Shown: positions 8,553 through 49,155, numbered from the stretch's first letter. The stretch is 64,000 bases of DNA from Candidatus Aminicenantes bacterium (GCA_963773685.1 CAVZBY010000010.1:32129-96128); one strand, 5' to 3'. Numbers and translations are program-made. Notes: generated by a model from the letters alone, not told the origin.

Positions 8553-9524
8553 CTACAGGTCCAGGGGGTTTTCCTTCAGGATCTTGACGTAGCTCTTTTC
8601 CCTGAGGGTTTTGAGGTACTCCTCGAGCTTCTTCTGCTTCTTCTCGGTATAGAGCTTTTCCTCGACTTCCTTCTTGACCTCTTCGAACGCCCTCAGCCGG
8701 CTGTCCTTCTTCTCCTCGAGCTTCAGGAGGTACCAGCCGTTCTTCGTCTCCACCCAATCGCCCGTCTCCCCCGGCTTGAGCTTGGCCACCGACTCCTCGA
8801 GGGCCTTGTCCAATTCGCCCTTCCGGAACCGGCCGAGGTCCCCTTCGGCCTCCTTGGCCGGGCCTTCGGAGTATTCCTTCGCCAGCGCGTTGAACGGCTC
8901 CCCGGCCTGGACCTTGCCCGAGATGAGCGCCCGCGCCTCCGCCAGCGCCTCCGGGGTCTTCCCCTCGGAGGCGAGGTAGACCCCACGGACGTGGTATTCC
9001 TCGGACTCCGTGAACTCCTGGGGATGGGCCTTGTAGTAGCCGACGATCTCGGAATCGTCCAGGACGATCGACCGGTCCACCTCGGAATAGATGGTGGCCT
9101 GCTTCAGCATATTGTCCTCGAGCTGCTTGATCCACTCGTCGAAATTCAGCCCCTGCTGCTGAAGCCCTCTCTTCAGGTCGTCGTCGGACTCGATGTTGTT
9201 CTCCTTCTTGATGTTTTCGACCGCCATCTTGACCTGCTCGGAGACGTTGAGGTTCTTCTCCTTGGCCTGCTGCATGAGGAGCAGGTCGGTGATCATCATG
9301 TTGAGCAGGTCCTTTTTCAGCAGCTGGTATTGCGCCTCGTACTCCGCGCCCTGGAGGGCCGATCGGAGCTGTTGGACGGTGGCGTCGAACTGCTCCTTGA
9401 CCTGGCTCAGGGTGATGACGTCGTCGTTGACGACCGCGACGATCTCTTCGACGACCTGACCGACGGCGGGCGCCAGGAGGACGGCGAGGCCGATGACGGC
9501 GAAGACCGGGATCCTTTTTCTCAT
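8553..9524 (-). CDS. surA: SurA-like peptidyl-prolyl isomerase/chaperone
   Basis: Signal peptide, VEEIVAVVNDDVIT, rotamase motif LAKEYSEG...EGDLG.F..GEL. Confidence 0.8.
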   Translation of the reverse strand: MRKRIPVFAVIGLAVLLAPAVGQVVEEIVAVVNDDVITLSQVKEQFDATVQQLRSALQGAEYEAQYQLLKKDLLNMMITDLLLMQQAKEKNLNVSEQVKMAVENIKKENNIESDDDLKRGLQQQGLNFDEWIKQLEDNMLKQATIYSEVDRSIVLDDSEIVGYYKAHPQEFTESEEYHVRGVYLASEGKTPEALAEARALISGKVQAGEPFNALAKEYSEGPAKEAEGDLGRFRKGELDKALEESVAKLKPGETGDWVETKNGWYLLKLEEKKDSRLRAFEEVKKEVEEKLYTEKKQKKLEEYLKTLREKSYVKILKENPLDL

Positions 9525-20434: not shown

Positions 20435-21488
20435 ATGAACAGGATCTTCGCGGTCATCGCCGTGGCGCTCATGACGACCCCCCTCGGGGCAGGGACCACC
20501 CGTCCCGTCCGCGACGACGTCGGCTTCTGTTGGAGCCCGCCAAGCATGGCCCGTCTCGTGGAGTACCTCGACTCCAGGGACGCGGACGCCTTCCCCGGCA
20601 AGGGGCTTGTCGCCGCCATCTCCCCGCACGACGATTACCTTTACGCCGGACGCGTTTATCATCCGCTCTTCAAAGCCCTCCGGACGAGGGAGGTCGTCGT
20701 CTTCGGCGTCACCCATGGAGCGGTCCGGAAGGAGATCGGCGATCCCCGAGGCGTCCTCATCCTCGAAGGATACGACGCTTTCCCCGGATTGGCGAAACCG
20801 ATCGGAATCTCCGGGCTCCGGGAGCGCATCAAGGCCCGCCTGGACAAGGACATGTTCCTGGTCAACGACAAGGCCCATGAGCTCGAACACTCCATCGAAG
20901 CCCTCCTTCCTTTCCTCCAGTACTACAACCCGGACGTGAAGATCACGCCCATCATGGTCGCGCCCATGCCCTATGCCCGCATGGAAGAGGTCGCGGCAAA
21001 GCTGGCGGCCATTGTCTCCGATTACATCCGTGACGAGGGTCTTGTCCCGGGGAAGGACATCTCCTTCCTCATCTCATCGGACGGCAACCATTACGGGAAG
21101 GATTTCGACAACTCCCCGTTCGGCGAGGGAGTCGAGGCCTGGGAGAAAGCGACCGCCCTCGACCGCCGTCTCATCGCCGGCTACCTCACGGGGCCGGTGA
21201 ACGCGGCCAAGGATCGAAGGGCTGACGAAGGAGCTCTGGGGGGCGACCTATATCGATTACAGGAACACCTATTGGTGCGGCAAGTATTCCGTTCCCTTCG
21301 GGCTCCTCGCAGCGGAAAAGATCGTCGCCCTGACGATGGGCAAGAGGCTCGCGGGGACGCTCTTCCGGTATTCGGACACCTATAGCGAAGGCGTTCTGCC
21401 GCTCACGAAGACGGGGATGGGCACGACCGCCCCCTTCTCCCTGCGCCACTGGGTCAGCTTCTGCTCGATCGGCTATTACCTGGACTGA
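20435..21488 (+). CDS. AmmeMemoRadiSam system protein B (MEMO1-like) with signal peptide, frameshift near 21215
   Basis: [33 protein letters not shown]; CGKYSV.FG in the shifted frame. Confidence 0.8.
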
Positions 21489-21967
21489 CCGCGGCGGCCT
21501 CGATCCTGTCGATGAGGCTGGAGCTGGAGCTGCCCTTGAGATAGGGCACGATAACGACCTTCCCGCCGGCGGCCTCGACCTCGGCCCGGCCGACGACCCT
21601 GTCCGGGCCCCAGTCGCCGCCCTTGACCAGGACGTCGGGGAGGAGCGCGGCAACGATCTTCCGGGGCGTCGTCTCCGCGAACCAGGTCACGTAGTCGATG
21701 TCGGCGAAGGCGGACAGGATCTCGAGCCGCTCCCGGAGGGGGAAGACGGGACGCGACGGGCCCTTGAGCTTCCGGACCGAAGCGTCCGTGTTCAGGGCGA
21801 CGATGAGGACGTCCCCGAGCTCCCGCGCCTTTCGGAAGAGCCGGACGTGCCCGGCATGCAGGAGGTCGAAACAGCCGTTGGTGAAAACGACCGTCTTCCC
21901 CTTCCTTCCGGAGCGCCCTCCGGATCGGGAGGAGCTCGCGCAGGCTCTTGATCTTGGGGTCTCTCAA
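21454..21967 (-). CDS. rfaE2: D-glycero-beta-D-manno-heptose 1-phosphate adenylyltransferase, frameshifted
   Basis: [39 protein letters not shown]. Confidence 0.85.
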
Positions 21968-23249
21968 GGCCGCTTCTTGTCCGGGGCTGCCGAGCCGGAT
22001 ATTCGGGCTGAAGGTCCACTCGTGCGCCAGGCGGGCGACGCCGACGTCCTTGAGATTGGAGGAGACCAGGAACGAATAGAGGTTCTGGTGATAATCGTAG
22101 GGATAGCCGTCCCTCTTGTGGACGGCCACGTCGAGGTAGTACGTCCCGTTGATCAGGTTGAGCTTCCCGATCCGGAACTCGACCCGCCCCTCGCCGTCGA
22201 TGCGCACGGACTCGAGGTCCTCGAGATGCGTGTTGGTCCCGTAGCAGGAGACGCCCTGGGAATTGAAGAGCCCCACGCCGAAGACGAAATCGTCGGTCGG
22301 GGTGGGCGCGACGACGTCCATCTCGATGATCATGCCTTCGTCCGGAGAAAAGACGTGCTTCGGCTGCCCCTGAAGGCTCCGGAGGGTCACATTGCGGATC
22401 TCGATCTCGCGCCGTCCCCACCGGTTCTCGCGCCGCTCCTCCACGGCGACCTCGGTCGCGACCGCGGCGGCCTCGCTCTTCTTCTCGAAGGCCTTTTCCT
22501 GCTTCACGGTGACGTCCTGGAGGTAGGCGTCGACGATCCGCTTCGGCTCGCCGGAGGCCGCGACGCGGCCGTTCTTGAGCCAGATGACCCGGTCGCAGAT
22601 CTTCTCCACCGTGGCCAGGTCGTGGCTGACGAAGAGGATGGTCTTCTTCCGGCGGCGGAAGTCGTCGATCCGGTCGAGGCACTTGGGGATGAAGGAGGCG
22701 TCGCCGACGGCCAGGACCTCGTCGATGAGGAGGATCTCCGGATTGACGTTGATGGCCACGGAGAAGCCGAGCCTCATGTACATCCCGGAGCTGTAGGTCT
22801 TGACGGGGGCGTCGATGAAGTCCTCGAGCTCGGCGAACCGGACGATCTCGTCGAACTTCGCGGTGATCTCCTTCTTCGAGAGCCCGAGCATGATGCCGTT
22901 GATGAAGACGTTCTCCCGCCCCGAGATCTCGGGATGGAAGCCGGCGCCGAGCTCGATGAGGGCCGAGACCTTGCCGTTCGTCGTCACGCTGCCCGGAGCT
23001 CGGCTTGGCGATCCCGGCCACGATCTTGAGCATCGTGCTCTTGCCCGAGCCGTTCTCGCCGATGAGGCCGAGCGTCTGCCCCTTTTCGACGTTGAAGCTG
23101 ACATCGTCGAGCGCCGTCACGAGCTCGTCGGCCCGGATCGACTTGACGAAGTCCCCCTTGACCAGGGCGCTCTTGAAGGTCTGGAACCGGTGGCGGGCGG
23201 AGTACTTCTGATAGACGCGGGAGACGTTCTCGACCTCGATGGCGTTCAT
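21964..23249 (-). CDS. wzt: Polysaccharide ABC exporter ATPase with C-terminal carbohydrate-binding domain, frameshifted
   Basis: GENGSGKST, LIELGAGFHPE.SGREN, YSSGM..RL.F, LIDEVLAVGD; Wzt-C domain RWG..EIEI...GTYYLDVAV. Confidence 0.9.
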
Positions 23250-24066
23250 TCAGACCTCCTCCGGGAAGGAGTCGCGGAGCCTGTCGAAGACCGTGTACCC
23301 GACCCAGAACATCAGGAGCCCGACGAGGAACGTCACGCCGAGCTTCTTCCAGTGGATGAGCTCCCCGTAGAACAGACAGCTCTGGTAGCCCCCGATGATG
23401 TGGGTCATCGGATTGAGGTTGAGGAGCGTCCGGAGGAAGCCCGATTTCGAGATGGTCCCGAACGAGAGGGGATAGATGATCGGCGTCGCGAAGAACCAGA
23501 AGGTCAGGAGGTTGGACAGGATGTCCTTGATGTCCCGGAAGTGGACGGTCAGCGACGGAGATGAGGAGGCCGAAACCGAGGGTGAAGACGTACTGGACCA
23601 GGATGACGACGGGCAGGAAGAGGACGTAGGGGGTGAAGGGCTTGCCGAGGATCGGGATGAAGGCGAGCAGGATGGGCAGGCCGAAGAGGAAGTTGATGAG
23701 GTTGCTGGTCACGGTGACCACGGGCAGGATCTCGGCCGGGAAGAGGATCTTCTTGATGAGGTTCCCGTTGATCATCAGGACGTTGGCCGATTCGAGCAGG
23801 GTCGACGAGAACCAGGTCCAGGGCAGGACCCCGCAGAAGAGGAACAGGGCGTAAAGCCAGGGGGAGCCCTCGAAGGCCGGGTCCCGGGGCTGGATGATGA
23901 ACCCGAAGACGACGGTATAGACGATCATCAGGAGGAGCGGGTTGAAGAACGACCAGAGGAAGCCGAGAACGGTCCCCCGATAGCGGGCCTTGAGCTCCCG
24001 GCTGACCAGGTTCTGGATGAGGACCCGGTAGTTCCACACGCGTTTCAGGTTCGCGACAATGCTCAT
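23250..24066 (-). CDS. wzm: Polysaccharide ABC exporter permease, frameshifted
   Basis: RELKARYRGTVLGFLWS..NPLL, LIKKI.FP.E; FFATPIIYP and LNPM in the second frame. Confidence 0.9.
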
Positions 24067-24780
24067 TCCGCCGTCCTTCCCGAGAAGATGGCCTCCGCTT
24101 CGGAAGTGTATCTCCCGTCCGGGCCGTAGAGGACGAGCGGAGGGAGGTCCGGCTCGCCCCCGAAGGAGAGGCCGCACATCGCGAGGAAAAGGCTCGCCTC
24201 TTCGCCTTCCCGCGAGAGGACGGGCCGCAGGGCCCCGATCCCGAAGTCCTGCGCGCTCACGGCGTCCTCGAAGTCCTTTCTCCGCTTGCCCGGATAGACG
24301 AAATAGGCCCGGCCGTCCGCTTTGAGGAAGGCCCGGGTCGCCCGCATTATATCATTTATGTCGCCCATTATCTCATGCTTGGCGACGCTCTTCTCCTCGT
24401 CCGCGGCCAGCCGCCCCCTCCGGCCCCGGATGTAGGGGGGATTGGAAAATACGACATCGAATTTCCGGCCGGGATCCCAGGCCCGGAAGTCCGCCCGGAC
24501 GATCTCGATGCGGTCCTCGAGCCCGTTGAGGGCGACGTTCCGCCGGGCCAGGTCCGCCAGCCGCTCCTGGACCTCGAGGGCGGTGATGCGCGCGAACGGC
24601 TTGATGCTGAGCAGGATGGAGATGACGCCGCTCCCCGTCCCCAGCTCGAGGAGCTCGTCGGAGGGGCGCGTCCTCACGAAATCCGCGAGGAGCGGGGCGT
24701 CCACCGAGAAGCGGTATCCCTTCCGCCCCTGGAAGAAGCGGAAACGCCCGCGGTAGAACGGGTCCAGGGTCTCGTCCCGG

Positions 24781-33047: not shown

Positions 33048-33190
33048 GGGGCACCGCCCGGAATTGTATTGAAATCGGGAAAGGATGTCAACGAACCGGA
33101 CATGCGGCAAATGCGGACGGAGGGACAGTTGGCGGGAACGGACGACATGGGTTAAAATATCCCTGGTTGATTCGTCATCGAGGGACGGGA

Positions 33191-34744
33191 ATGCACCAGA
33201 CTTCGCCAACGGAAGCCTATATTGAAGAGATGTACGGGAAGCTGCTCGGCCGCAGGCCCGACAAAGAAGGACTCGACCACTACACCGGCATGCTGGCTCG
33301 GGGGGAGCTGACCCGCACTGAATTCGTTCACCATCTGAAGAATTCGACGGAGTACTGGCTGCGCCGTTTCCCCGGGGATATCCCGCGACGGGCCCAGGAG
33401 AATATAGCCCTGAACGACCGGGAGATCCGGGAAAAGAGGACCGTCCTGCAGTCCCGGCCCTTCATCTTCAACATCGACCTGATCGGGGTCTGCGATATGA
33501 ACCCGCCCTGCAGCATGTGCTTTAACTGGAAAGATGGCCGGAGCCCTCGCTTTCATAAAGGGCTGACGGTTGAAGACATCAAGCGCTTCGGCGAGCACCT
33601 CCAGCTGGCCCACGAGGTCATCAATTGCGGCATCGGAGAGCCCCTTCTCAACCGCGACCTGATCCCCATCCTGCGGCTTTTCCATGATTGGGGCAAACCC
33701 TTCGGTTTCAACTCCAACGGCCTCGCCCTCAGCCCGGCCCTGACCGAACGGATGGTCCCCTATTTCGAGATCCTCACCATCCTTTTTTCTCTAGACGCCG
33801 CCACGGCGGAAACCTACGCCAAGGTGCGGGGCCGCTTCTTCGACCGAGTGGTGGAGAACATCGCCCATTACAGCGCCAGACGGCGGGAAGTAGCGCCTGA
33901 CGGCCTTGCCTCCAAAACCGGCATCGTCTTCATGCCCATGCGCAGTAACCGCCGCGAAACGGCCGACTTCATCCGCTTGGGGGCCCGCCTGGGCGTCGAC
34001 GTCGTGGAGCTCCGGGCCCTGAACCGGATCGATGAGAACTGGGTCGTCCGTCGGGGCGATTTTACGTTCGACTACTTTCGGGAGATCCTCACCCCGGCCG
34101 AGCTCGAGGAGATCAGGCAGGAAGCGGCGGAAGTCGCCGCCGCGGAAGGGATCCGCCTGGATTGCCAGTATCAGGTCTCTCCGGAGAGCACGTTCGCCTT
34201 TTTCCTCCCGCCCCAGTACCGGGACCTGGGCATCCGCTGCGTCCTGCCCTGGCGTTTCATCCTGCCCTATCAGAACGGCAATACGATCCCCTGCTGCTTC
34301 ATTTCCGACGATCTCGGCGACTGGCGCAAGACCGGCCTGGAAAAGCTGTGGAACGGCCCCTTCATGCAGGACCTGCGCGGCCGGATGGCCACGGGGAGAC
34401 TGCCCGATGTCTGCCGCCGTTTCCCCTCCTGTCCGGTGGTGCAGGCCACGCTGTCCGAGGAACGCGGCCTCCATTCCGGATCCGCAGGCGCGCCGGACGC
34501 TCACCCCGCGCCGGACGTCCCGGAGACGATGCCGGCGCTGCGACTCAGGGCGCCGGAGAATCGGGCCTTCATGAAGCGTGCCGTCCAAGCGTTGAGGAAA
34601 CGCTTCAATCTGGAATTGCACCACAGCCTCGGCGAATGGCTCGCGCGGCAGGAAAAGGCCGATCGCGAGCTGGCCGAGGAGGTCCAACGCCTGCGGGCCG
34701 AGGTCTCCGAGCTCCACCGGGAGCGGGAGAAGCCCAAGGGCTGA
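33191..34744 (+). CDS. DUF4214-radical SAM-SPASM/Twitch protein with C-terminal coiled coil
   Basis: Y..LLGR.PD.EG...Y...L......S.EY (DUF4214); CDMNPPCSMC; GEPLL; SLDA..AETY.K.R; C.LPW...PCC...C..C. Confidence 0.85.
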   Translation: MHQTSPTEAYIEEMYGKLLGRRPDKEGLDHYTGMLARGELTRTEFVHHLKNSTEYWLRRFPGDIPRRAQENIALNDREIREKRTVLQSRPFIFNIDLIGVCDMNPPCSMCFNWKDGRSPRFHKGLTVEDIKRFGEHLQLAHEVINCGIGEPLLNRDLIPILRLFHDWGKPFGFNSNGLALSPALTERMVPYFEILTILFSLDAATAETYAKVRGRFFDRVVENIAHYSARRREVAPDGLASKTGIVFMPMRSNRRETADFIRLGARLGVDVVELRALNRIDENWVVRRGDFTFDYFREILTPAELEEIRQEAAEVAAAEGIRLDCQYQVSPESTFAFFLPPQYRDLGIRCVLPWRFILPYQNGNTIPCCFISDDLGDWRKTGLEKLWNGPFMQDLRGRMATGRLPDVCRRFPSCPVVQATLSEERGLHSGSAGAPDAHPAPDVPETMPALRLRAPENRAFMKRAVQALRKRFNLELHHSLGEWLARQEKADRELAEEVQRLRAEVSELHREREKPKG

Positions 34745-34748
34745 GCGA

Positions 34749-34777
34749 TTGACTTTCCCCAGGGCCTCTCCTACAAT
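34749..34777 (+). promoter_or_regulatory. Sigma70 promoter (leaderless type)
   Basis: TTGACT-17 nt-TACAAT, ATG 6 nt downstream. Confidence 0.75.
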
Positions 34778-34783
34778 CAGGCC

Positions 34784-35080
34784 ATGGAACGCGAGGAGAT
34801 GCTCGCCCGCATAGCCGCGATCAAGACCGAAGTCGACGCCGCCAACGTCGATATCATCCGCCGCCTGATCGCCGAACGCCGCATCCACATGCAGACGTCG
34901 CACCGCGCTTCCCTCCCGGGAAGACTGATCAATAGCCTTCGACGGAAGCTCCTTTTCGAGGTGGAGCGGGGGTTCGAGCCCGTGTTCGAGCGGCAGCGCG
35001 AGATCGACCTGCGCCTGCTCAAGGAGATCGAAGCCCTCAAGGCGGCGCTGGAGCAAAAGGGGCATGGCGCCGGCGGCTGA
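34784..35080 (+). CDS. Small coiled-coil protein (98 aa)
   Basis: ORF at the predicted +1; SHR...GR....LRRKL..EV....P.FERQ...D motif. Confidence 0.75.
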   Translation: MEREEMLARIAAIKTEVDAANVDIIRRLIAERRIHMQTSHRASLPGRLINSLRRKLLFEVERGFEPVFERQREIDLRLLKEIEALKAALEQKGHGAGG

Positions 35081-36153
35081 GGCCGGGGGCGTCGCGGGCC
35101 GCTCCCTGACCATCGTCGTCTGCGCTCCCCAGGTTCCGTTCGTCAGAGGCGGCGCGGAGGAGCACGTGGACTCCCTTTGCCGGGAGCTGCGCGCCCGGGG
35201 CCATCGGGCGGAGCTCGTCACGCTCCCTTACAAATGGTATCCCCGGGCCCAGCTGTGGCGCAGCATGGAGATGTGGGAGCTGGCCGACCTGGGCGAAGCG
35301 AACGGGCTCAAGATCGACCTGGTCATCGCCACCAAGTTCCCGTCCTATTTCGTCCGTCACAGCCGCCAGGTCCTCTGGCTGATCCATCAGTACCGCCAGC
35401 TCTATGACCTCTACGGCACGGCATATTCGGATCACAGCCCGGACCGATGGCGCGACCGCCGGCTCCACCGCCGGTTCGTGGCCCGCGACACCGCCGCCCT
35501 GGCCCGTTATGCCCGGCGTTTCACCAATTCGAACAACACCCGGGAGCGGATGTCCCGATACAACGGGCTGGACGCCGAGACCCTCTATCATCCTCCCAAG
35601 CTGGCCGGACGGCTGCAGGGCCTGGAATACGGCGATTACGTTCTTTCGGTCGGCCGTTTGGAAACGTTGAAGAGAACGGAAGGCCTGATCCGCGCCCTGG
35701 CGCTGACGGAGACGCCGGTCCGAGCGGTGGTCGCCGGCACGGGGCCCGAGGAGGGCCGGCTTCGGCAGCTCGCCCGGGACCTGGGGCTGGCGTCGCGGGT
35801 CGAGTTCGCGGGATATGTGGACGACGACCGGCTTATCGATCTTTACGGCCGCTGTCTGGGCGTCTTTTTCGCTCCGGTCGATGAAGATTACGGGTATATC
35901 ACGCTGGAGGCTTTCCTGGCCGCCAAGCCGGTCCTGACCTGCAGGGACTCGGGCGGTCCGATGGAATTCGTGGTTCACGAACAAAAGCGGGTTCATCCTG
36001 CCGCCCGAGGATTGGACGGCGGCGGCGTCCGCCATCGACCGGCTCTTCCGCGACCGGGCGCTCTGCCGGAGCCTCGGCGAGGCCGGCCGGGAGGCGGTGC
36101 GCTCCATCACCTGGGACCATGCGATCTCCCGACTGCTGGAGGGAGCCGGTTGA
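35064..36153 (+). CDS. Glycosyltransferase family 4, frameshift near 35985
   Basis: PFVRGGAE, IATKFPSY, VGRLE..KR, EDYGYITLEA; C-terminus ...ITWDHAISRLLEGAG* in the shifted frame. Confidence 0.85.
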
Positions 36154-37352
36154 AGATCGCCTGGTTCAGCCCGCTTTCCCCCGTGCCGAGCGGCATCGCC
36201 GATTACAGCGAGGAATTGCTGCCGAGCCTCGCCCGCCATGCGGCCATCGACATCTATATCGATCCGTCCTACGCCCCGAGCAACGCCGGGATCGCCCGCG
36301 CTTTCACCGTCCGGCCGTTCGATCCGGAGACGTTCCGGGCCGGGGATTACGATCACATCGTGTACCATATGGGCAACGATTTCACGGCCCACCGCTATAT
36401 CCATGACGCCATGCGGCGCTTCCCCGGCGTGATGGTCCTTCACGATCTCGTGCTCATGGGCTTTTACGCCGCTCGTCAGGGCGCCGGCAAGGACTTCGCC
36501 GGCTTTATCCGCTTCCTTCAGCGATTCTACCCTGATAAAGCGTCCTGGATCGAAGAGGAGTATGCCGGCCGCTACCCCTTTCCGCTCTGGGAGAGAGAAT
36601 CGGCCCTGCAGATGCCGATGAACGAAGAGGTCTGCCGTCTGGCCGCCGGAGTCATCACCCATTCCCAATATGTCCTGGCGCGGCTCGACCTGCAGGCCGG
36701 AAAACCCGCCGCCGTCATTCCCCACCACGGGCACCCCACCCATCCCTTCGATCGGGAGGCGATCCGCGCCGGGCTCGGCGTGAAGCCCGGCCAGGTTCTC
36801 CTCATTTCCACCGGCTACGTCACCCGCAATAAGCGCTACCACGTGGTGCTGGAAGTCCTGGAGGAGCTGGGCCGGCCCGACCTGCGCTACCTGATCGTCG
36901 GGCGCGACGGCGAAGGCCTTTTGAAGCAGATGCGGATCGCCGGCCGGCCCGACGTGCAGACCCGGGGATTCGTTCCCCTCGCCGAGATGGAACAGCTGAT
37001 CGCCGCCGCCGATATCGGCATCAATCTGCGCAGCCCGACCATGGGCGAAAGCTCCGGTTCCCTCATGCGTATGATGAGCTACGGATTGCCGGTCGTCGTG
37101 AGCGACTGCGGATCGTACCGCGAGATCCCCGATCATTGCGCCGTCAAGATCGATACGGGGATCGACGAAAAGGAAGAGCTCAAAGCCTTCATCGCCGCCC
37201 TGGCCGACAGCCCCGACCTGCGGGCGGCCCTGGGCCGCGAGGCGGCGCGTTACGCCGGCGAAACGTGCGGCATCGACCGTTGCGCCGATCTGTACGCGGC
37301 GTTTCTGCGCGACATGCGAGCGGAGCGCCCGGCGCGGAGGGAACCCCGATGA
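36150..37352 (+). CDS. Glycosyltransferase family 4
   Basis: TTG start; KIAWFSPL.P..SGIADYS, YHMGN, VLHD, NLRSPTMGESSG. Confidence 0.85.
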   Translation: MKIAWFSPLSPVPSGIADYSEELLPSLARHAAIDIYIDPSYAPSNAGIARAFTVRPFDPETFRAGDYDHIVYHMGNDFTAHRYIHDAMRRFPGVMVLHDLVLMGFYAARQGAGKDFAGFIRFLQRFYPDKASWIEEEYAGRYPFPLWERESALQMPMNEEVCRLAAGVITHSQYVLARLDLQAGKPAAVIPHHGHPTHPFDREAIRAGLGVKPGQVLLISTGYVTRNKRYHVVLEVLEELGRPDLRYLIVGRDGEGLLKQMRIAGRPDVQTRGFVPLAEMEQLIAAADIGINLRSPTMGESSGSLMRMMSYGLPVVVSDCGSYREIPDHCAVKIDTGIDEKEELKAFIAALADSPDLRAALGREAARYAGETCGIDRCADLYAAFLRDMRAERPARREPR

Positions 37353-37864
37353 GCGAGACGGACCGGAACAAAGCGGACATCGACGGGATGCTGAAAGGAC
37401 TGCGCCGGGAATTCGCCCTCCGGGCGGAAGGGGCCGCAACGGTCGAAGCCGTCGCCGGCGGCCCGGTGGACCACGATATTCCGCAGGACTACTGGCACTT
37501 CACCGATGAAGAATTGGAGAACGAGCTGTGGAGCCGCGTCCTCGAGCTGGATAGGGCGACGAGCGACCCGGCTCGGGCCACGGATATTCCGCCCGGCGGC
37601 CTTTCGCCGGCAAAACCCGGCCTATCCGGAAGGATCAGAGGCGGATTCAAGAAGCTTTTACTGCCGCTGGTCCGGCATGCGCTGGCGAGGCAGGACCGCC
37701 TGAACCGCCAGTTCGAACACGCGCAATTCATCCAGTTCCTGGTGGTCAGACAGCTCCGTCAGCGCCTGCAGAAGCTGGAACGCGAGAACCGCGAGCTGGG
37801 CCTCCGGCTGGCCGAGCGGGAGATCGAAAAGGCCCCCGGCGGAGAGACCTCCGGCCATGAGTGA
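37349..37864 (+). CDS. Hypothetical coiled-coil protein
   Basis: ATGA overlap with the upstream GT; GR....FKKLLLPLVRHALARQ...N motif followed by heptad repeats. Confidence 0.7.
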   Translation: MSETDRNKADIDGMLKGLRREFALRAEGAATVEAVAGGPVDHDIPQDYWHFTDEELENELWSRVLELDRATSDPARATDIPPGGLSPAKPGLSGRIRGGFKKLLLPLVRHALARQDRLNRQFEHAQFIQFLVVRQLRQRLQKLERENRELGLRLAEREIEKAPGGETSGHE

Positions 37865-39248
37865 GCCGCCCCTGGCCGAACGGCCGGCCGGGAAAGCGCC
37901 CGCGGGGCCGGCTTGGGAAAACGCCTTTCTGAAGCGGATCGCCGCGCTCAAGCAGGCGGGCACCCGGGAATACGCGCGCGACATGGCTGATCTCCTGCAC
38001 GGTTCGGCGGCGGACCCCGCCCTGTTGGGGAGGGTGGGCGCCGTCATCGCCGACAGGGCCGGCCTTCGCACGGCCATCAACGCCATCGATCTCTGCCAGC
38101 TGATGCTGGGCCTGAGAAAGCCGCGCATCGCCATCTACGACCATACATGGCCGTTCATCGGCGGGGCGCAGAAATACGGCGCCACGATGGCCGAGGCCTT
38201 GCGGGATCTGGGTGAGATCACCTTGATCGGGAACCGCCCCTTCTCCACCGGACAGCTGTCGGCCTGGTACGGCCTGGATCTCGCGGATTGCTCCACCCGC
38301 CTGATTCCGCTTCCCTTTTTCGAGGAAAAGGGCGGAGATTCCATCGATCCCGGAGAGATCATCTCGCGCGACATGGCCAACCCGTTCCATGCCGTCAGCC
38401 GGGCGACCCTGGACTACGACCTCTTCATCAACAACGGCATGCTGGAAATGGTCCTGCCCCTGTCCTATCGGTCCGTATTCATCACCCACTTCCCGGAACG
38501 ACGGGCGCGCAGCTATTTCTACGTGGACCGCTACGACCGCTTGGTCTGCAACAGCCGCTATACGGCCGGATGGATCGAAAAGCGTTGGGGGCTCGAACCC
38601 CACGTTCAGATCTATCCCCCCGTCGACATGCCGGGACCGCGCCCCGAAAACAAGGAGCCAATCATCCTGTCGGTGGCGCGCTTCGACCCCGGGGGGAACA
38701 AGCAACAGCTCGACATGGTCCGCGTTTTCCAGACGCTCGTCCGCCGTCACCCCAGGGCCAGCCGCGGCTGGCGCCTGATCCTTGCCGGCGGCAGTCATGG
38801 CGATAACCCTTATCTCCGCCAGGTGCGGCAATTTCTGACGGACAACCCGGGCCTCCCGGTCGAGCTGAAGGTGAACATCACGGCGGCCGAGCTCCGGGAG
38901 CTCTATCGCCGCGCCTCCCTGTTCTGGCATTTCTGCGGTCTCGGACAGACCGATCCGGCCCTTGTGGAGCATTTCGGCATGACCGTGGCCGAGGCCATGC
39001 AGAGCGGATGTATCCCCCTGGTCTTCGACGGCGGCGGCATGCGCGAGATCGTCCGGTCCGGGGAGAACGGCTATCTCTTCTCCAACCTCGTCGAGCTGGC
39101 CGGCACGATCGTCAGGCTGTTCGACGAACCCGCGTTGCGCGCCGGCCTGGCCGAGGCGGCCTGGAGCGCCGGACGGAGTTTCGCCAAAGAGATCTTCGCC
39201 GGCCGCGTGCGGACCCTGGCCCGGGAGCTGTTGGCCCCGGCCCCATGA
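37857..39248 (+). CDS. Glycosyltransferase family 4
   Basis: GGAQKY, CNSRYT, IYPPVD, ILSVARF, EHFGMTVAEAM. Confidence 0.9.
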   Translation: MSEPPLAERPAGKAPAGPAWENAFLKRIAALKQAGTREYARDMADLLHGSAADPALLGRVGAVIADRAGLRTAINAIDLCQLMLGLRKPRIAIYDHTWPFIGGAQKYGATMAEALRDLGEITLIGNRPFSTGQLSAWYGLDLADCSTRLIPLPFFEEKGGDSIDPGEIISRDMANPFHAVSRATLDYDLFINNGMLEMVLPLSYRSVFITHFPERRARSYFYVDRYDRLVCNSRYTAGWIEKRWGLEPHVQIYPPVDMPGPRPENKEPIILSVARFDPGGNKQQLDMVRVFQTLVRRHPRASRGWRLILAGGSHGDNPYLRQVRQFLTDNPGLPVELKVNITAAELRELYRRASLFWHFCGLGQTDPALVEHFGMTVAEAMQSGCIPLVFDGGGMREIVRSGENGYLFSNLVELAGTIVRLFDEPALRAGLAEAAWSAGRSFAKEIFAGRVRTLARELLAPAP

Positions 39249-39280: not shown

Positions 39281-39334
39281 TCCTCGCCCGTCTTGCCCGT
39301 CTCGCTTGTCCCGCCTGCCTCGCTTGTCTCGCTT
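39281..39334 (+). repeat. Tandem degenerate 9-bp repeats, GTCTCGCYY x6
   Basis: TCCTCGCCC GTCTTGCCC GTCTCGCTT GTCCCGCCT GCCTCGCTT GTCTCGCTT. Confidence 0.8.
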
Positions 39335-39368
39335 TCAATTATGGGCCCTTTGTGTTATATTTCCTAAG

Positions 39369-40337
39369 ATGAACATAACAGGACGGATAGAGATTTCTCT
39401 GGTCATCCCCGTCTTCAACGAGGAGGAGAGCCTCCCCGAGCTCTATCAGCAGCTCGGCCGGGCCTGCCCCGGACTGGGGAGGCCCTACGAGATCATCTTC
39501 GTCGACGACGGAAGCACGGACGGCTCGTTCGAGACCCTGAAGCGCCTCCGGGCGGGCGACCCGAGGGTCCGCATCGTCCGCTTCCGGAGGAACTTCGGCC
39601 AGACGGCCGCCCTGGCCGCGGGGTTCGATCTCGCCCGGGGGGACGTCATCGTCACCCTGGACGCCGACCTCCAGAACGATCCGGCGGACATCGCCGCCCT
39701 GCTCACCAAGATCGACGCCGGATACGACATCGTTTCGGGCTGGAGGAAGGATCGGAAAGACCGGTTCCTGTCGCGCCGGCTCCCGTCCATCATGGCGAAC
39801 GGGCTCATCTCCCGCTTCACGGGGGTCAAGCTCCACGACTACGGCTGTACGCTCAAGGCCTTCCGCCGGGAGGTCATCAAGAGCATCAACCTCTACGGCG
39901 AGCTCCACCGGTTCATTCCCGCCATCGCCAGCACCATGGGCGTTTCGATCGCCGAGATCGAGGTCCGTCACCGCCCCCGCACGAAGGGCAAGTCCAAGTA
40001 CAACATCCTGAGGACCCCCAAGGTCCTCCTCGACCTCCTGACGGTCAAGTTCCTCCTGAGCTATTCGACCCGCCCCCTGCAGATCTTCGGCCTGTTCGGC
40101 ATGGCCGGCGGGCTGGCCGGCCTCCTGATCGGACTGTGGCTGTCGTACGAGCGGCTTGTCCTCAAGCACAGCATCGCCAACCGTCCCCTGCTCCTCCTGG
40201 CCGTCCTGCTCGTCGTCATCGGCATCCAGTTCATCACCCTCGGCCTCCTGGCCGAGATCATGGTCCGCGCCTACCACGAATCCTCCGCCAAGAAGATCTA
40301 CCACATCAAGGAAACCATCGACTCCGACCGGCCATGA
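39369..40337 (+). CDS. GT2 polyprenyl-phosphate glycosyltransferase (ArnC/GtrB-like)
   Basis: VIPVFNEEE, VDDGS.D, RNFGQTAA, LDADLQND, HDYGC; two C-terminal TM segments. Confidence 0.9.
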   Translation: MNITGRIEISLVIPVFNEEESLPELYQQLGRACPGLGRPYEIIFVDDGSTDGSFETLKRLRAGDPRVRIVRFRRNFGQTAALAAGFDLARGDVIVTLDADLQNDPADIAALLTKIDAGYDIVSGWRKDRKDRFLSRRLPSIMANGLISRFTGVKLHDYGCTLKAFRREVIKSINLYGELHRFIPAIASTMGVSIAEIEVRHRPRTKGKSKYNILRTPKVLLDLLTVKFLLSYSTRPLQIFGLFGMAGGLAGLLIGLWLSYERLVLKHSIANRPLLLLAVLLVVIGIQFITLGLLAEIMVRAYHESSAKKIYHIKETIDSDRP

Positions 40338-41500
40338 AGATCCTCATGCTCGCCCCCGAGCCGTTCTTCCAGCCTCGGGGGACCCCCATCAGCGTCTACT
40401 TCCGGGCCCAGGCGCTCACGGCCCTCGGCCACGAGGTCGACCTCGTCACCTACCCGCTGGGCGAGGACGTCCGGATGGACGGGCTGAGGATCTTCCGCCT
40501 GCCGAACTTCCTCGGCCTCAGGAAGATCAAGATCGGTCCCTCGGCCGCCAAGGTCCCGCTCGACGCGGCGCTCGCCCTGAAGGCGCTGGGCCGCGTCCTC
40601 CGCAACCGCTACGACCTCGTCCACTCCCACGAGGAAGCGGACCTCATCGGCGTCCTCCTGAGCCGGCTCGCCCGAGCGCCCCACGTGTACGACATGCATT
40701 CGAGCCTGCCGCAACAGCTCGAGAACTTCGAGTTCACGCGGTCGCCCCTTCTCAAGCGGCTCTTCGCCCGGATGGAGCGATTCGTCCTCAGGAATTCGCA
40801 CGCCATCATCGTCATCTGCCCCGATCTCATGGACAGGGTGCGGGCCGAGGGTTTCGGGGAAAAGGCCGTTCTCATCGAGAATGTCCTCGATTTTCCCGCC
40901 CCGGAGACCGGCCCGGGCGAGATCGAGCGGATGAAGCTCGAGCTGGCCCCGGGCGGCGAGAAGATCATCCTTTACGCCGGGAACTTCGGGCCGTATCAGG
41001 GCGTATCCCTCCTCGTCGAAGCCGCCGCCCGTCTCCGGGAGAAGGCGGTCCTCGTTCTTCTCGGCGGAAGCCCGGGGGACCGGGCCTGTCTCGAAGCTCA
41101 GGCCGCCGGGCTCGGCCTCACGGGGAGGATCGTCGTCCTGGACAGGGTCGCCCCCACGCGGGTCCCGCTGTTCGTGCAGGCCGCCGACGTCCTGGTTTCG
41201 CCCCGGATGTCCGGGACGAACACGCCCCTGAAGATCTATTCGTTCCTGAAGTCGGGGAAGCCCCTCGTCGCGACGCGCCTCTATACCCACACCCAGGTTC
41301 TCAACGACGCCATCTCCATCCTGGTCGAACCGACGCCGGAGGCTATGGCTGCCGGCCTGGACTTCGCTCTCAAGGACCCGGAAGCGAAGAAGCGGGCCGC
41401 GGCCGCCGCGGCGCTCGCGGCGAGGGAATATACGTTCGAGGCCTATCGGGACAGGATCGTCCGCTGTCTCGGGATGGCCGTGAAGAATTTCGGAGGATAG
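40334..41500 (+). CDS. Glycosyltransferase family 4
   Basis: MKILMLAPEPFFQPRGTP, HSHEE, YDMHSSL, ADVLVSPR..GTNTPLKIYS. Confidence 0.85.
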   Translation: MKILMLAPEPFFQPRGTPISVYFRAQALTALGHEVDLVTYPLGEDVRMDGLRIFRLPNFLGLRKIKIGPSAAKVPLDAALALKALGRVLRNRYDLVHSHEEADLIGVLLSRLARAPHVYDMHSSLPQQLENFEFTRSPLLKRLFARMERFVLRNSHAIIVICPDLMDRVRAEGFGEKAVLIENVLDFPAPETGPGEIERMKLELAPGGEKIILYAGNFGPYQGVSLLVEAAARLREKAVLVLLGGSPGDRACLEAQAAGLGLTGRIVVLDRVAPTRVPLFVQAADVLVSPRMSGTNTPLKIYSFLKSGKPLVATRLYTHTQVLNDAISILVEPTPEAMAAGLDFALKDPEAKKRAAAAAALAAREYTFEAYRDRIVRCLGMAVKNFGG

Positions 41501-45390: not shown

Positions 45391-46191
45391 ATGAAAAGAA
45401 CGAGACGCCACGCCCTGGGCCAGCATTTTCTCGTCAACCGCTCCGTCCTCGACAAGATCGTCCGCGCGATCGGCCCCGAAGCGTCCGATGTCATCGTCGA
45501 GATCGGTCCGGGAAGGGGCGCCCTGACCTTCCTCCTCGCGGAGCGCGCGGGCCGGGTCATCGCCGTCGAGAAGGACGCGGCCTTCATCCCCCTCCTCCGC
45601 GAAAAGGCCGGTCCGAACGTGACCATCGTCGAGGCCGACGTCCTCGACACGGACTTCGCGCCCCTGCTCGAAGCCGCGGGCGGGGACGGAGGCGGCGCGA
45701 AGCTCGTCGGGAACCTCCCCTATTCGGTCTCGTCGCCCATCCTGTTCAAGGCCCTCGACGCCCATGCCCTGTTCGCGAAATGCGTCTTCCTCCTCCAGAA
45801 GGAGGTCGCCGACAGGGTCTGCGGCCGCCCGGGCACGAAGGACCATTCGCCGATGTCCATCCTGCTCCAGGATCGTTTCGAGGCGCGCGTCGAATTCCGC
45901 GTCTCCCCCGGCTCCTTCTCCCCGCCGCCCAAGGTCGATTCGGCGCTCCTCTCGCTCACCCGCAGGGCCGCGCCGCTTTTCCCGGCCGCGAACGAGGCGG
46001 GGTTCCGGAGGTTCCTGAGGGCGGCCTTCGCCCAACGGCGGAAACTGCTCGTCCGGAACCTCGAAATGAGCGGCCTGCCGCGCGAGCGGATCGAAGCCGC
46101 TTACGCCGCCCTCGGCCTCGCCCGCAACGCCCGCGCCGAGGAGCTCCCCGCCGATGTCCTTTTCGCGATCTATGCTAAAATGAACCGATGA
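45391..46191 (+). CDS. rsmA: 16S rRNA dimethyltransferase
   Basis: LGQHFL, EIGPG.GALT, GNLPY, LQKEVA.R, F.PPPKVDS. Confidence 0.95.
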   Translation: MKRTRRHALGQHFLVNRSVLDKIVRAIGPEASDVIVEIGPGRGALTFLLAERAGRVIAVEKDAAFIPLLREKAGPNVTIVEADVLDTDFAPLLEAAGGDGGGAKLVGNLPYSVSSPILFKALDAHALFAKCVFLLQKEVADRVCGRPGTKDHSPMSILLQDRFEARVEFRVSPGSFSPPPKVDSALLSLTRRAAPLFPAANEAGFRRFLRAAFAQRRKLLVRNLEMSGLPRERIEAAYAALGLARNARAEELPADVLFAIYAKMNR

Positions 46192-47166
46192 CGAAAGGCG
46201 AATACTATCGAAGGCTGTGGGCCATCTTCCGGGCCTACAGGAAAAGGGAGACGGTCCTCGCCTACCTCCCCATCCGGCTCTGGATCGAGCCGACGAGCTT
46301 CTGCAACCTCCGGTGCGTCATGTGCCCCAACAAGGACCTCGACCGGAGGGACAAGGGTTACATGCCGCTCGAGCTCTTCCGGAAGATCGTCGACGAAGCC
46401 GCCGGGTTCGTCCACGAGGCCAACCTCATCCACCGCGGCGAATCCCTGCTCCACCCGGATTTCTTCGAGATGGTCCGGGCCGCCTCCTCGGCCGGGATCG
46501 TGACCAAGCTCCACACGAACGCCACGCTGCTCGACGAGGACAAGTCCCGCCGGCTCATCGAGGCGGGGCTCCACCAGCTGACCTTCTCCTTCGACGGCTA
46601 CGACAAGGCGACCTACGAGAGCATCCGGGTCAACGGCACGTTCGAAAAGACCATCGCGAACATCCGCGACTTCCACCGGGTGAGGAAAGAGCTCGGGGCC
46701 AAGCGGCCGCGGACCATCCTCGAGCTCATCAATTTCCCCGACACTCTACCGGAACGTCGGCCGCGCAGAAAAGCGGGCCTTCCTGGAACAATTCAAGGAA
46801 TTCCCGCCGGACAAGGTCCGGATCAAGGACCTGCACAACTGGGCGGGCGAGATCGGAGGCCCGGGGAAAGGAAAGAAGTACGCGCCGTGCACGTTCCTCT
46901 GGGCGTCCCTCATCATCTTCTGGGACGGCCGGGTGCTTCCGTGCACGCAGGATTTCCCCGGGGACCTCGCGGTCGGGAACGTCGCCGAGACGTCCCTGGC
47001 CTCCATCTGGAACAACGGGCGGATGGTGGAGCTCAGGAAGAAAGCGGCCTCGGGGGACATCTCCGGCCTCAAGCCCTGCTCCTCCTGCGACCGGCCCTGG
47101 CGGGACACGTTCCTCGGAGTTCCCAGGGAATATATCTGGAAGCTCCTCCTGCGCCGGATGCCCTGA
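46188..47166 (+). CDS. Radical SAM/SPASM protein, frameshift near 46750
   Basis: IEPTSFCNLRCVMCP, GESLLHP, SFDG; then HNWAG, C...W...IFWDG.V.PC.QD, C..C in the shifted frame. Confidence 0.85.
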
Positions 47167-47225
47167 TCGGGCGTTCCCGCCAAATTGACACCTCTTTTGG
47201 GCCCGTGCTATATTCGGACCGCGAA

Positions 47226-49155
47226 ATGAAGATCTCGAGCCTCGTCTCGGTAATCCTCGCCCTCTCGTCGAGTTTCATCCAGGCCTCTCCGCGAGACGGG
47301 GCATGGTTCTCCCTCGGCCGTCCGACCTCGTCGCTCCCTCGCCTCGAGGAGGACCGGGCCGGGGCGCTCCGCGCCCTATGGCTCGAGAATGGAGAGGCGG
47401 GCAGCGCCATCATCCTCGGGCGCGTCGTCGGAGACTCTTTCGAGAAGGAAGGCGTCATCGCCGCGGCCGCGGGGACCGTGCTGTCCCCGGACTTCGATTT
47501 CGATCCCCTGAACCGGCCCTGGGTCGCCTGGATCGACCTTGACGAAGCGGGGCCCCGGGTCTTCGTCCGGGAGCCCGACGCGAACCGGACCTGGCGGGTC
47601 AGCCCGCCCTCCCTTGTCTCGGCCTCGCGAGTGAAGGTCCTGGCGGGGGGCCCTTCGGGGACCTGGGTCCTCTGGACCGGTCGCGACTCGGGCCGGGACG
47701 AGACGTTCTTCAGCCGATTCGACGGCGCGGCTTGGTCGCCGGCCGCCCGCCTCCACGGGAAAAATTCATCTCCCCGGATCCTGATGGATGCGGCCCTGGA
47801 CGCGGCCTCGTGTCCCTGGGTCGTCTGGTCCGGCTACGACGGAGAGGATTACGAGGTCTGTCGGCGCCCGATGGGACGGGACAGGATGGTCGGGCGAAGA
47901 GACGCTCACGGACGATGCCGGATCCGACGCCTGGCCGGGCATCATCTTCCTCGGGGACTCGCTCCCCGTCGTCGTCTGGGCCAACTCCCGCGGACGGACG
48001 ACCTCGTTGCGCGCGCGGGTCTTCGCCGCCGGCGCCTGGGGGCCGACGCTCGAGATCCTCGCCCCCGGAGAAAACGTCGCCGAGCCCCGCCTATCGACCC
48101 GGGACGGCCGGCTGGTCGTTGCCTGGAGGTCCGATGGGGAGATCGCTTCGACGGCCTTTTCCCGCGACGAGCTCGGGAACCTGAAGAGCCCCGCCCCGGG
48201 GGCGGACGCGCCCGCTCTCGACGCGGCGGGGCGGGACGAGAACGCGTATACGGCGTTCGGCGACGAGATCACATACGGCTGGATCGACAGCGGCCCGGCC
48301 GTCGATCTCGGATACGTGCCGAGGCTCGAGACGCTCCTCACGGAGCGGTTCGGCCCTTCATCCCTCGCCAACGAGGGCGTCCCCGGCGAGACCACGATCA
48401 ACGGCCTGGGCCGCATCAGCGACGTGCTCGCAAGGAACGCCGGCCGCTACCTGCTCCTCCTGGAGGGGAACAACGACGTCGTCCTGCCCGACCTTTCCAT
48501 CGACGCCCAGACGTTCAACATCGAACAGATGGTCTTGAGGTGCGTCGACGCCGGCGTCCTCCCCGTCCTGGCGACCATCATCCCCCGCAACGACGTCTAT
48601 TGGACAGACCCCTTCTTCCGGGAGAGGATCGACGACCTCAATAAGGAGGTCCGCAGGATCGCCCTGAACCTGAAGCTTCCGTTCGTCGATATGTTCAACA
48701 CGTTCCTGGACTTTCCCGAAGCCGACGGCGGATGGCCCTCCCTGCTGTCCGACCCCGCCCACCCGAACGAGCGGGGATACGAGGTCATGGCCCGGGCCTG
48801 GATCGAGGCGGTCGGAAGGATCCCCTTCCCCCCCTCTCCGGTCACGGTCAGCCGGTCGACGGAGCGGTCCCTTCTCGCCGACCGGAAGGTCAATTTCCTG
48901 ACCTGGCGCCACAGCCCCAAGATCCGCAACCCGTTCCTGTTCCGGAGCTACAGGATCTTCCGGAAGGACACGGCGGAGCCCCTGGCCGAATTCCGGCTGA
49001 TCGCCGTCCTTCCCTATTCGCCCTTCCACGACCCGCAGAAGTACAACGACCTCGATATCCTCGACAGCCACGGCTATCGATACGCCGTCTCCCTGGTCGC
49101 CGTCGACGGCATCGAGGGCCCGCTGTCCGACCCCGCCGACGACTCCGAACTGTGA
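47226..49155 (+). CDS. Secreted protein with SGNH/GDSL-hydrolase-like domain, frameshift near 47860
   Basis: Signal peptide; AFGDEITYG, NEGVPGETT, LLEGNND, DPAHPN..GY. Confidence 0.75.

Follow-up and report, generated by a model that had tools for sequence, protein, structure and literature searches.

A helical module common to a radical SAM enzyme and a small protein of a conserved glycosyltransferase cassette in Candidatus Aminicenantes

In this work we analyzed a 64,000 nt stretch of DNA from a Candidatus Aminicenantes bacterium (one strand; hereafter the window, to which coordinates refer unless another locus is named), which encodes on its plus strand a radical S-adenosylmethionine (rSAM) enzyme of 517 aa (33191-34744) and, next to it, a small helical protein of 98 aa (34784-35080), in a locus rich in genes for family 4 glycosyltransferases (GT4). 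Homology links the last ~60 residues of the rSAM enzyme to the helix at the C-terminus of the 98-aa protein. This common segment, referred to here as the module, is a lineage-restricted helix of about 52 residues and constitutes a new helical family which as yet has no name. On the basis of gene order and gene fusions we regard it as probable, on balance, that the module is an adaptor or docking helix specific to this gene cassette which tethers the rSAM enzyme to the GT4 machinery, the binding itself being predicted.

The module and its rarity

An initial annotation, made from the sequence of the window, had claimed that the C-terminus of the rSAM enzyme aligns without gaps to the 98-aa protein, and the best ungapped BLOSUM62 segment between the two (score 56, 45 residues, 11 identities) is exactly the one that had been claimed. 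Shuffles of the 98-aa protein score 27.9±5.0 and none of the 200 reaches 56. The claimed alignments were not reported by composition-adjusted BLASTP run among the rSAM, 98-aa and 171-aa proteins of the locus. When a profile of 20 rSAM tails was compared by hhalign with the profile of the 98-aa family, the two aligned over 61 columns with a probability of 97.9% and an E-value of 3.7e-13. All close orthologues of the rSAM enzyme retain the tail (..ALRKRFNLEL.HSLGELL.RQEKINR.L.EEIERLRAE..), the pattern R..R...E......Q..IN is kept in orthologues down to ~62% identity, and the more distant rSAM homologues P0047, P0048, P0072 and P0076 (44-50% identity) bear the tail ..KLIKKLRHRMAVEIAHVLEPVLENQKEINLRLLKEIEELKK.., which is almost the consensus of the small proteins. 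It is these relatives, together with the profile alignment, that settle the likeness as homology and not as a generic coiled-coil resemblance, an alternative against which the rarity of the module also speaks.

In the AlphaFold model of the rSAM enzyme (mean pLDDT 77.1) a compact enzyme is followed by a linker predicted to be disordered (residues 429-458, 34475-34564; pLDDT <50, no secondary structure) and then by a single helix (residues 459-512, 34565-34726), a diverged copy of the module which the module model recognizes with an E-value of 5e-24. The module has its founding form in the 98-aa protein, of which there are 26 homologues (65-95% identity) and which is modelled as a helix (residues 3-30), a loop and a second helix (residues 44-95), with a pLDDT of 73.9, a pTM of 0.33 and no confident packing. 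This second helix (34913-35068), which is delimited by the family alignments as well as by the model, carries the conserved positions R53, E59, Q71, (I)N75 and E81. In the models the tail helix and the helix of the small protein are equal in length (~52-54 residues), and the module region is free of indels across 25 sequences of 28-83% identity. In our own reading the consensus ..L..Q...N..L...I..L.. can be laid out in heptads, which would place the conserved Q and N on successive core positions. Polar layers buried in this way frequently determine which partner a helix pairs with, and in which register.

A module profile composed of the rSAM tails and the small proteins was searched against 1.84 billion representative proteins and matched 36 of them at E≤1e-3 and 17 at E≤1e-10. 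Nearly all of the 36 are proteins of 39-126 aa with the same build, with a few gene-call fragments of rSAM tails among the matches; the remainder consist of one rSAM representative and two longer proteins of 166 and 201 aa, and no catalytic domain other than rSAM bears the module in any of the 36. Seven of 401 sampled genomes of the phylum contain the module, two of them weakly, and it was found in none of three sampled genomes from the same family as the source. In the genome to which the window belongs the module model matched only two places at E≤10 (45 candidates scored), both of which were already known. Neither the 98-aa protein nor the module in general matches any Pfam or NCBIfam family above threshold; the 25 family members, when compared with Pfam at E≤1, gave scattered chance matches, the commonest family appearing in 3 of the 25; the best match of the small-protein profile among PDB sequences has an E-value of 0.077; and in the ESM Atlas the module falls only in unnamed clusters. 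Membership of a widespread 'Q..FN' helix of methyltransferases in glycan loci was also considered and dropped, as the search of the representative proteins gave no backing for it; only the weak small proteins P0204-P0206 resemble that helix.

A weaker, third copy of the helix had been placed by the initial annotation in p171, a 171-aa helical protein (37349-37864, plus strand; 38 homologues) encoded further downstream, and this attribution was not established by comparison. Pairwise, p171 and the module are alike at chance level (23 of 200 and 32 of 200 shuffles reach the scores, and the best segments differ from those claimed), and p171 is not among the matches of the module model in its own genome at E≤10. 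Comparison of profiles, made four times with growing depth, gave E-values of 0.056, 0.022, 0.0086 and 0.0052 with probabilities of 1-7% over 12-37 columns. These alignments always centre on LxxQxx[IL]N, and with more diverse alignments the matched stretch narrows to 13 columns (L..Q..[IL]N..L). It appears that p171 and the module have only this short motif in common, and common descent is not established by it.

The protein p171, which like the 98-aa protein matches no Pfam or NCBIfam family above threshold, has features of its own, namely a conserved D.W.F..(E/D)LENELW motif, a basic stretch, the sequence LARQDRLN (residues 112-119, 37682-37705) and a C-terminus resembling a leucine zipper; 12 of 29 members have weak bZIP-type matches (Pfam at E≤1), which are of the generic coiled-coil kind. 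An 11-residue unit, RITLEKQDRLN, which contains LEKQDRLN, is present in one to four copies among the 38 homologues (one copy in 23, two in nine, three in one, four in one, and none by pattern in four), p171 of the window having a single unit and no tandem repeat. In locus L035 3.3 tandem copies of a 33-nt repeat (9064-9172) encode the unit, and a 21-nt repeat lies at 8885-8967 of the same locus within the p171 homologue (PDLDQAM-like, up to ~4 copies or more; homologues P0150-P0169). Since both repeats vary, the lengths of helix and linker differ between close relatives, and this variation may keep the idea of a molecular ruler alive, for p171 rather than for the rSAM enzyme.

The cassette and the rSAM enzyme

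The module-bearing cassette occurs in Aminicenantes-type bacteria. It was followed through 69 loci, which comprise the window, loci of four genomes from the phylum sample (two contigs being shared with the next set), seven loci from genome collections and 59 metagenome contigs, and which span 35-72% GC; counts refer to the loci with enough DNA, and four of the gene-order rows (the window, L020, L023 and L081) were set by hand. Wherever the contig is long enough the order of genes is invariant: small protein, GT4a, GT4a2, p171 and GT4b. The gene directly after the module open reading frame (ORF) is GT4a in 65/65 loci (44/44 clusters at 90% identity), and the order extends to GT4a2 in 46/46 loci (31/31 clusters), to p171 in 36/36 (26/26) and to GT4b in 30/30 (22/22). 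The original observation that the rSAM enzyme and two small proteins are interleaved with GT4 genes is confirmed in the window, and comparison of the loci links the module to the GT4 genes. In 62 of 63 measured loci the ORF of the small protein runs 17-83 nt into that of GT4a (upper bounds, since longest ORFs were taken), a tight arrangement which suggests coupled translation.

In the window the 3' end of the 98-aa ORF overlaps the start of the downstream GT4 by 17 nt. GT4a and GT4a2 are read here as one ORF of 762 aa (35064-37352, plus strand) with two Glycos_transf_1 stretches in Pfam; this 'double GT4' consists of two genes merged by a frameshift near 35980-35987, with GT4a2 beginning near 36111. 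By tblastn residues 1-308 of the GT4a of locus L017 lie in one frame and residues 306-361 in another, and in 45 other loci with enough DNA for both genes GT4a and GT4a2 are separate and overlapping. The end of the p171 ORF overlaps by 8 nt the start of GT4b (37857-39248, plus strand; Pfam), the fifth gene of the cassette. The homologues of the 98-aa ORF, and those of the 171-aa ORF (42-99% identity), indicate that both are real genes.

The rSAM enzyme, for which an alternative TTG start at 33167 is possible, consists in Pfam of a DUF4214 domain (residues 7-55, E 4e-9), a Radical_SAM domain (residues 99-260, E 9e-13) and a SPASM/twitch region (residues 350-409; SPASM E 4e-6, 27.3 bits against a cut-off of 21.5), after which come the linker and the tail helix. 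The cluster motif, C101-x5-C107-x2-C110 (33491-33520), is kept in at least 90% of 18 orthologues, its loop being modelled with low confidence, and the 'CGIGEP' SAM motif as well as C350, C368, C369, C408 and C414 are invariant in the 18 sequences. With its three-Cys motif, a GGEP-like motif and a Cys-rich C-terminal auxiliary-cluster domain the enzyme belongs with the SPASM/twitch radical SAM enzymes. Foldseek aligned residues ~90-428 with SuiB, DesII, BlsE, SkfB, anSME and viperin (E 4e-11 to 6e-7; query-normalised TM 0.40-0.47), so that sugar-nucleotide enzymes (DesII and BlsE) are among the closest structural neighbours, along with peptide maturases. The enzyme has the same fold as SuiB, SkfB, anSME, DesII and BlsE over this region, at 12-19% identity to the matches listed, and it differs from them in the additional N-terminal DUF4214 domain and C-terminal module and in a cluster spacing of CX5CX2C in place of the canonical CX3CX2C. 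No NCBIfam model reached its cut-off (the best, N_Twi_rSAM, 52 bits against 170). Among PDB sequences the rSAM profile matched with its DUF4214 part only, to the phycobilisome linker domains of ApcE/CpcN (E 3e-9), and residues 7-55 accordingly resemble the helical domain of the DUF4214 (PF13946) or phycobilisome-linker type. The available part of a preprint (10.64898/2026.09.02.748959) proposes that a secreted RTX-DUF4214 protein binds O-antigen, which is taken here as a lead only.

The association of the rSAM enzyme with the cassette was scored in 37 loci having at least 1500 nt upstream, in 15 of which the enzyme is present. In ten of these 15 it is co-directional and carries a module tail, as in the window. 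In one further locus, L062, the small protein itself forms the C-terminus of the rSAM enzyme (residues 467-530), directly before GT4a and with no separate small gene, and this architecture, in which the module is fused to the enzyme, is also that of P0047, P0048, P0072 and P0076. In a tree of 133 module sequences (70 columns) the tails of the window type group together in a single clade on a long branch of 1.78 (SH-aLRT 100; 22 rows, including three fragmentary gene calls), set apart from the fusion-type tails, which nest among the small proteins with support of 84-90. The module has therefore been joined to the rSAM family at least twice, and by Rosetta-stone logic such repeated joining points to a functional link of the enzyme to the role of the small protein. 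A database protein of 528 aa, P0043, joins an rSAM enzyme to a complete 98-aa sequence, and its module groups with the stand-alone small proteins of the kin of the window; it is probably a read-through or frameshifted gene call and not a natural fusion.

Downstream of the cassette the window encodes an ArnC-like GT2 of the polyprenyl-phosphate sugar transferase type (39306-40337, plus strand; Pfam; NCBIfam PRK10714 at 245 bits, below the cut-off of 529) and a further GT4 (40355-41500, plus strand; Pfam), which are found in this lineage only and are present also in L017. A second radical SAM protein, of 818 aa (46188-48644), adjoins ksgA 5 kb downstream of the glycan genes; it is without the module and matches no family above cut-off. 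What flanks the cassette varies with the lineage, and housekeeping genes predominate (ExbD, acyl-CoA dehydrogenase, OPT and CstA transporters, ACT and GATase proteins, purine genes, TsaD); at some loci there is an APH-type kinase, a further pair of GT4 genes, RmlD or a DUF4214 protein. The APH-family phosphotransferase adjoins the cassette in several lineages without the rSAM enzyme (L053 5545-6738, L040 506-1678, L022 4624-5775 and L011 14627-15811), often with two extra GT4 genes downstream; it carries no module and may be an alternative tailoring enzyme.

Docking and its alternatives

An adaptor or docking role of the module is plausible on the basis of what was observed: tail and small protein are homologous, the order of genes does not vary, the ORF of the small protein lies close to the start of GT4a or overlaps it, and module and rSAM enzyme are joined in two separate ways. 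The 98-aa protein would be a non-catalytic adaptor of the GT4 enzymes. The copy of the module at the C-terminus of the rSAM enzyme would serve for docking, its helix being preceded by a flexible linker of ~30 residues. Through this copy an optional tailoring enzyme would be held at the same GT4 assembly, the copy either taking the binding site of the small protein or pairing with the helix of that protein. We infer in this scheme the physical binding, the binding partner and an action of the rSAM enzyme on the glycan or a precursor of it. A complex prediction for residues 445-517 of the rSAM enzyme with the 98-aa family scored 0.02 against a mark of 0.32, was made without controls, and is used neither for nor against binding. 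The initial annotation had proposed that a shared helix recruits the rSAM enzyme, and this idea is supported in part, by a specific homologous module, its link to GT4 in 65/65 loci and the two modes of joining; the three-helix scaffold which formed part of it is not supported, p171 contributing only a motif.

It should be noted that several observations weigh against docking. The rSAM enzyme is absent from 22 of the 37 loci, a central role of the enzyme being thus unsupported, and in four others it is divergent and without the module (homologues of 445-460 aa ending in a short basic helix); the cassette thus works without the enzyme, and the enzyme can be associated with it without the tail. 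In L018 (~6830 and ~6955), L032, L033 and L034 the tail breaks off after RKRFNL because of two in-frame TAA codons, which replace GAA (Glu) and AAA (Lys); the sequence between and beyond these codons is still conserved and in frame, so that in this sublineage the distal tail helix is dispensable or decaying. None of the 36 representatives with the module is a fusion of the small protein with a GT4. The tree is a quick maximum-likelihood one, with modest support for the nesting, and many of the loci are close kin, the number of clusters falling from 46 at 90% identity to 14 at 70%.

These same stop codons would fit a tail that serves merely for self-association or stability of the rSAM enzyme, having arisen by chance fusion or duplication of the neighbouring small gene, without any role in recruiting the enzyme to the GT4 enzymes. 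Long single helices often oligomerise, and the tail has diverged strongly from the small protein (11 identities in 45 residues; branch 1.78). We nevertheless consider this explanation unlikely: the module was joined to the rSAM enzyme at least twice, the R..R...E......Q..IN pattern is maintained in the orthologues down to ~62% identity, and the module of the fusion type stays directly before GT4a.

It is quite unlikely that the rSAM enzyme is a chain terminator comparable to WbdD, which on a coiled-coil ruler would cap an ABC-transporter-dependent glycan, the cap being read by Wzt-C, as the initial annotation had suggested. According to the available part of PMC11231755, WbdD of E. coli O9a and Klebsiella O3 contains an extended coiled coil, the membrane-proximal end of which has an amphipathic helix and a site recruiting the dual-glycosyltransferase polymerase WbdA, and in other O-antigen serotypes the modules are distributed differently with the long coiled coil retained. 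The cassette likewise has a non-catalytic helix on a tailoring enzyme and a dual GT4-type pair, as in WbdD-WbdA and other coiled-coil terminators (WbbB; K. pneumoniae O4 ORF7 and O7 ORF6). The pair of GT4a and GT4a2 recalls the dual-module WbdA and, as the membrane-proximal region of WbdD recruits this polymerase (PMC11231755, in the part available), so the helical proteins of the cassette may recruit enzymes. The one to four tandem copies of the p171 unit moreover mean that one helix of the cassette varies in length.

A further argument for such a terminator is an exporter encoded ~10 kb upstream of the cassette, a Wzt with a Wzt_C domain and a Wzm (21476-24069, minus strand). Its presence, including the carbohydrate-binding C-terminal domain, had been noted correctly: Wzt_C is matched with an E-value of 2.3e-28 at 21476-23104 (minus strand), and the Wzm matches the 'transport permease protein' of PDB 6oih/6m96 with an E-value of 4e-20. 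Both genes are interrupted by frameshifts (21476-24177). In Wzt positions 1-42 and 63-135 of the ABC_tran profile lie in different frames, and in Wzm the match to the solved structure covers only chain residues 4-158 of 254, after which the frame degenerates; three frameshifts within ~15 kb (Wzt, Wzm and GT4a) suggest assembly errors rather than three pseudogenes. Between the exporter and the cassette lie ATP synthase genes, folC, accD and a response regulator. A Pfam survey of the regions around 13 other cassette loci (at most 7 kb on each side in ten, and the retrieved stretches of three) revealed no Wzm/Wzt. Wzt_C is encoded somewhere in four of five cassette genomes, on other contigs in three of them (G315, G398 and G333), and was not found in cassette genome G358. 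Among the loci surveyed Wzm/Wzt thus lies near the cassette only in this lineage; the linkage appears not to be conserved, and a cap read by Wzt-C is not supported.

The module itself has no sequence relation to the WbdD type (the Pfam, NCBIfam and PDB sequence searches being empty), and the enzyme of the cassette is a radical SAM enzyme whereas those of the WbdD type are a kinase, methyltransferase or Kdo transferase. The tail helix is of ~54 residues and of fixed length, without indels in its family; it stands behind a disordered linker, which separates it from the enzyme, and is not an extended coil between catalytic site and membrane anchor, so that a length ruler of the WbdD kind is not supported. 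In known systems, by comparison, the coiled coil bears the catalytic module at the end farther from the polymerase site (PMC11231755, in the part available). In addition, the module is found as a protein in its own right, there is no conspicuous amphipathic membrane helix, and the rSAM enzyme is absent from 22 of the 37 loci. As the cassette shows neither the extended spacer nor, on a crude measure, the amphipathic anchor of WbdD, and as its linkage to Wzm/Wzt appears not to be conserved, we do not class it as a terminator of that type, and the chain-capping story is unsupported; the module may still act as a recruitment helix.

Very unlikely, in our view, is a scenario in which the small proteins are substrates, that is, precursors glycosylated by the GT4 enzymes and modified by the rSAM enzyme in the manner of ribosomally synthesized and post-translationally modified peptides (RiPPs), with the rSAM tail resembling a leader. 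The small genes do lie directly upstream of modifying enzymes, the nearest folds of the rSAM enzyme include the peptide maturases SuiB and SkfB, CteB-type enzymes and anSME, and the small proteins have variable, polar C-termini with many S/T/Q/E/K residues. The small protein, however, is present without any rSAM enzyme in those same 22 of 37 loci, which departs from the obligatory co-occurrence of RiPP precursor and maturase; it is the long helix, with its invariant R, E and Q, that is conserved and not a short core peptide, and no protease or exporter is conserved beside the cassette in the surveyed flanks. To our knowledge there is no natural precedent for a leader-like copy fused to the enzyme itself, and we count this against the scenario as well. 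The least probable of the explanations, and a highly improbable one, is that the module, by its basic first half, anchors in the plane of the membrane and so brings soluble enzymes to a lipid-linked acceptor, for which speak the basic helix 1 of the small protein (RLINSLRRKLLFEVERGF, net charge +3), the short basic helix in which many rSAM homologues without the long tail end (e.g., ...ARRARRILGRIKRRFL) and the C-terminal amphipathic membrane helix of WbdD (PMC11231755, in the part available), and against which stand a negative mean hydrophobicity and maximal hydrophobic moments of 0.52-0.64 which, on this crude measure, do not exceed those of shuffles (45%, 58% and 14% of which reach them).

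Significance

The evidence for an adaptor role of the module is comparative, and within these bounds docking remains the reading that we prefer. A much bolder view, which we would call a long shot, is that the cassette is a self-contained glycan-assembly machine in which the two small helical proteins set the geometry and the product length of the three GT4 enzymes, the Q/N helices pairing in register and the RITLEKQDRLN units of p171 (one to four copies) serving as an adjustable spacer, and into which tailoring enzymes such as the CX5CX2C rSAM enzyme plug by means of a copy of the adaptor helix; such 'dock-by-helix' might then even provide a radical SAM chain terminator. Radical SAM enzymes are not among the O-antigen chain-terminating enzymes described in the available part of PMC11231755, none of the matches listed in a literature search on O-antigen contains 'radical SAM', and no literature joining DUF4214, radical SAM and glycosyltransferase was found.

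A few O-antigen systems of proteobacteria are known to bring glycan polymerases together with their tailoring enzymes by means of helical or coiled-coil segments. The present case appears to be that of an unrelated and unnamed helical module with a similar job in an uncultured phylum, where it occurs both free-standing and as the tail of a radical SAM enzyme. If docking is true, the cassette would be a compact example of the recruitment of an accessory enzyme to glycosyltransferase complexes, the module profile would provide a sequence handle for finding such cassettes, and the rSAM enzyme would be a candidate for a new radical SAM reaction on a glycan or a sugar nucleotide.

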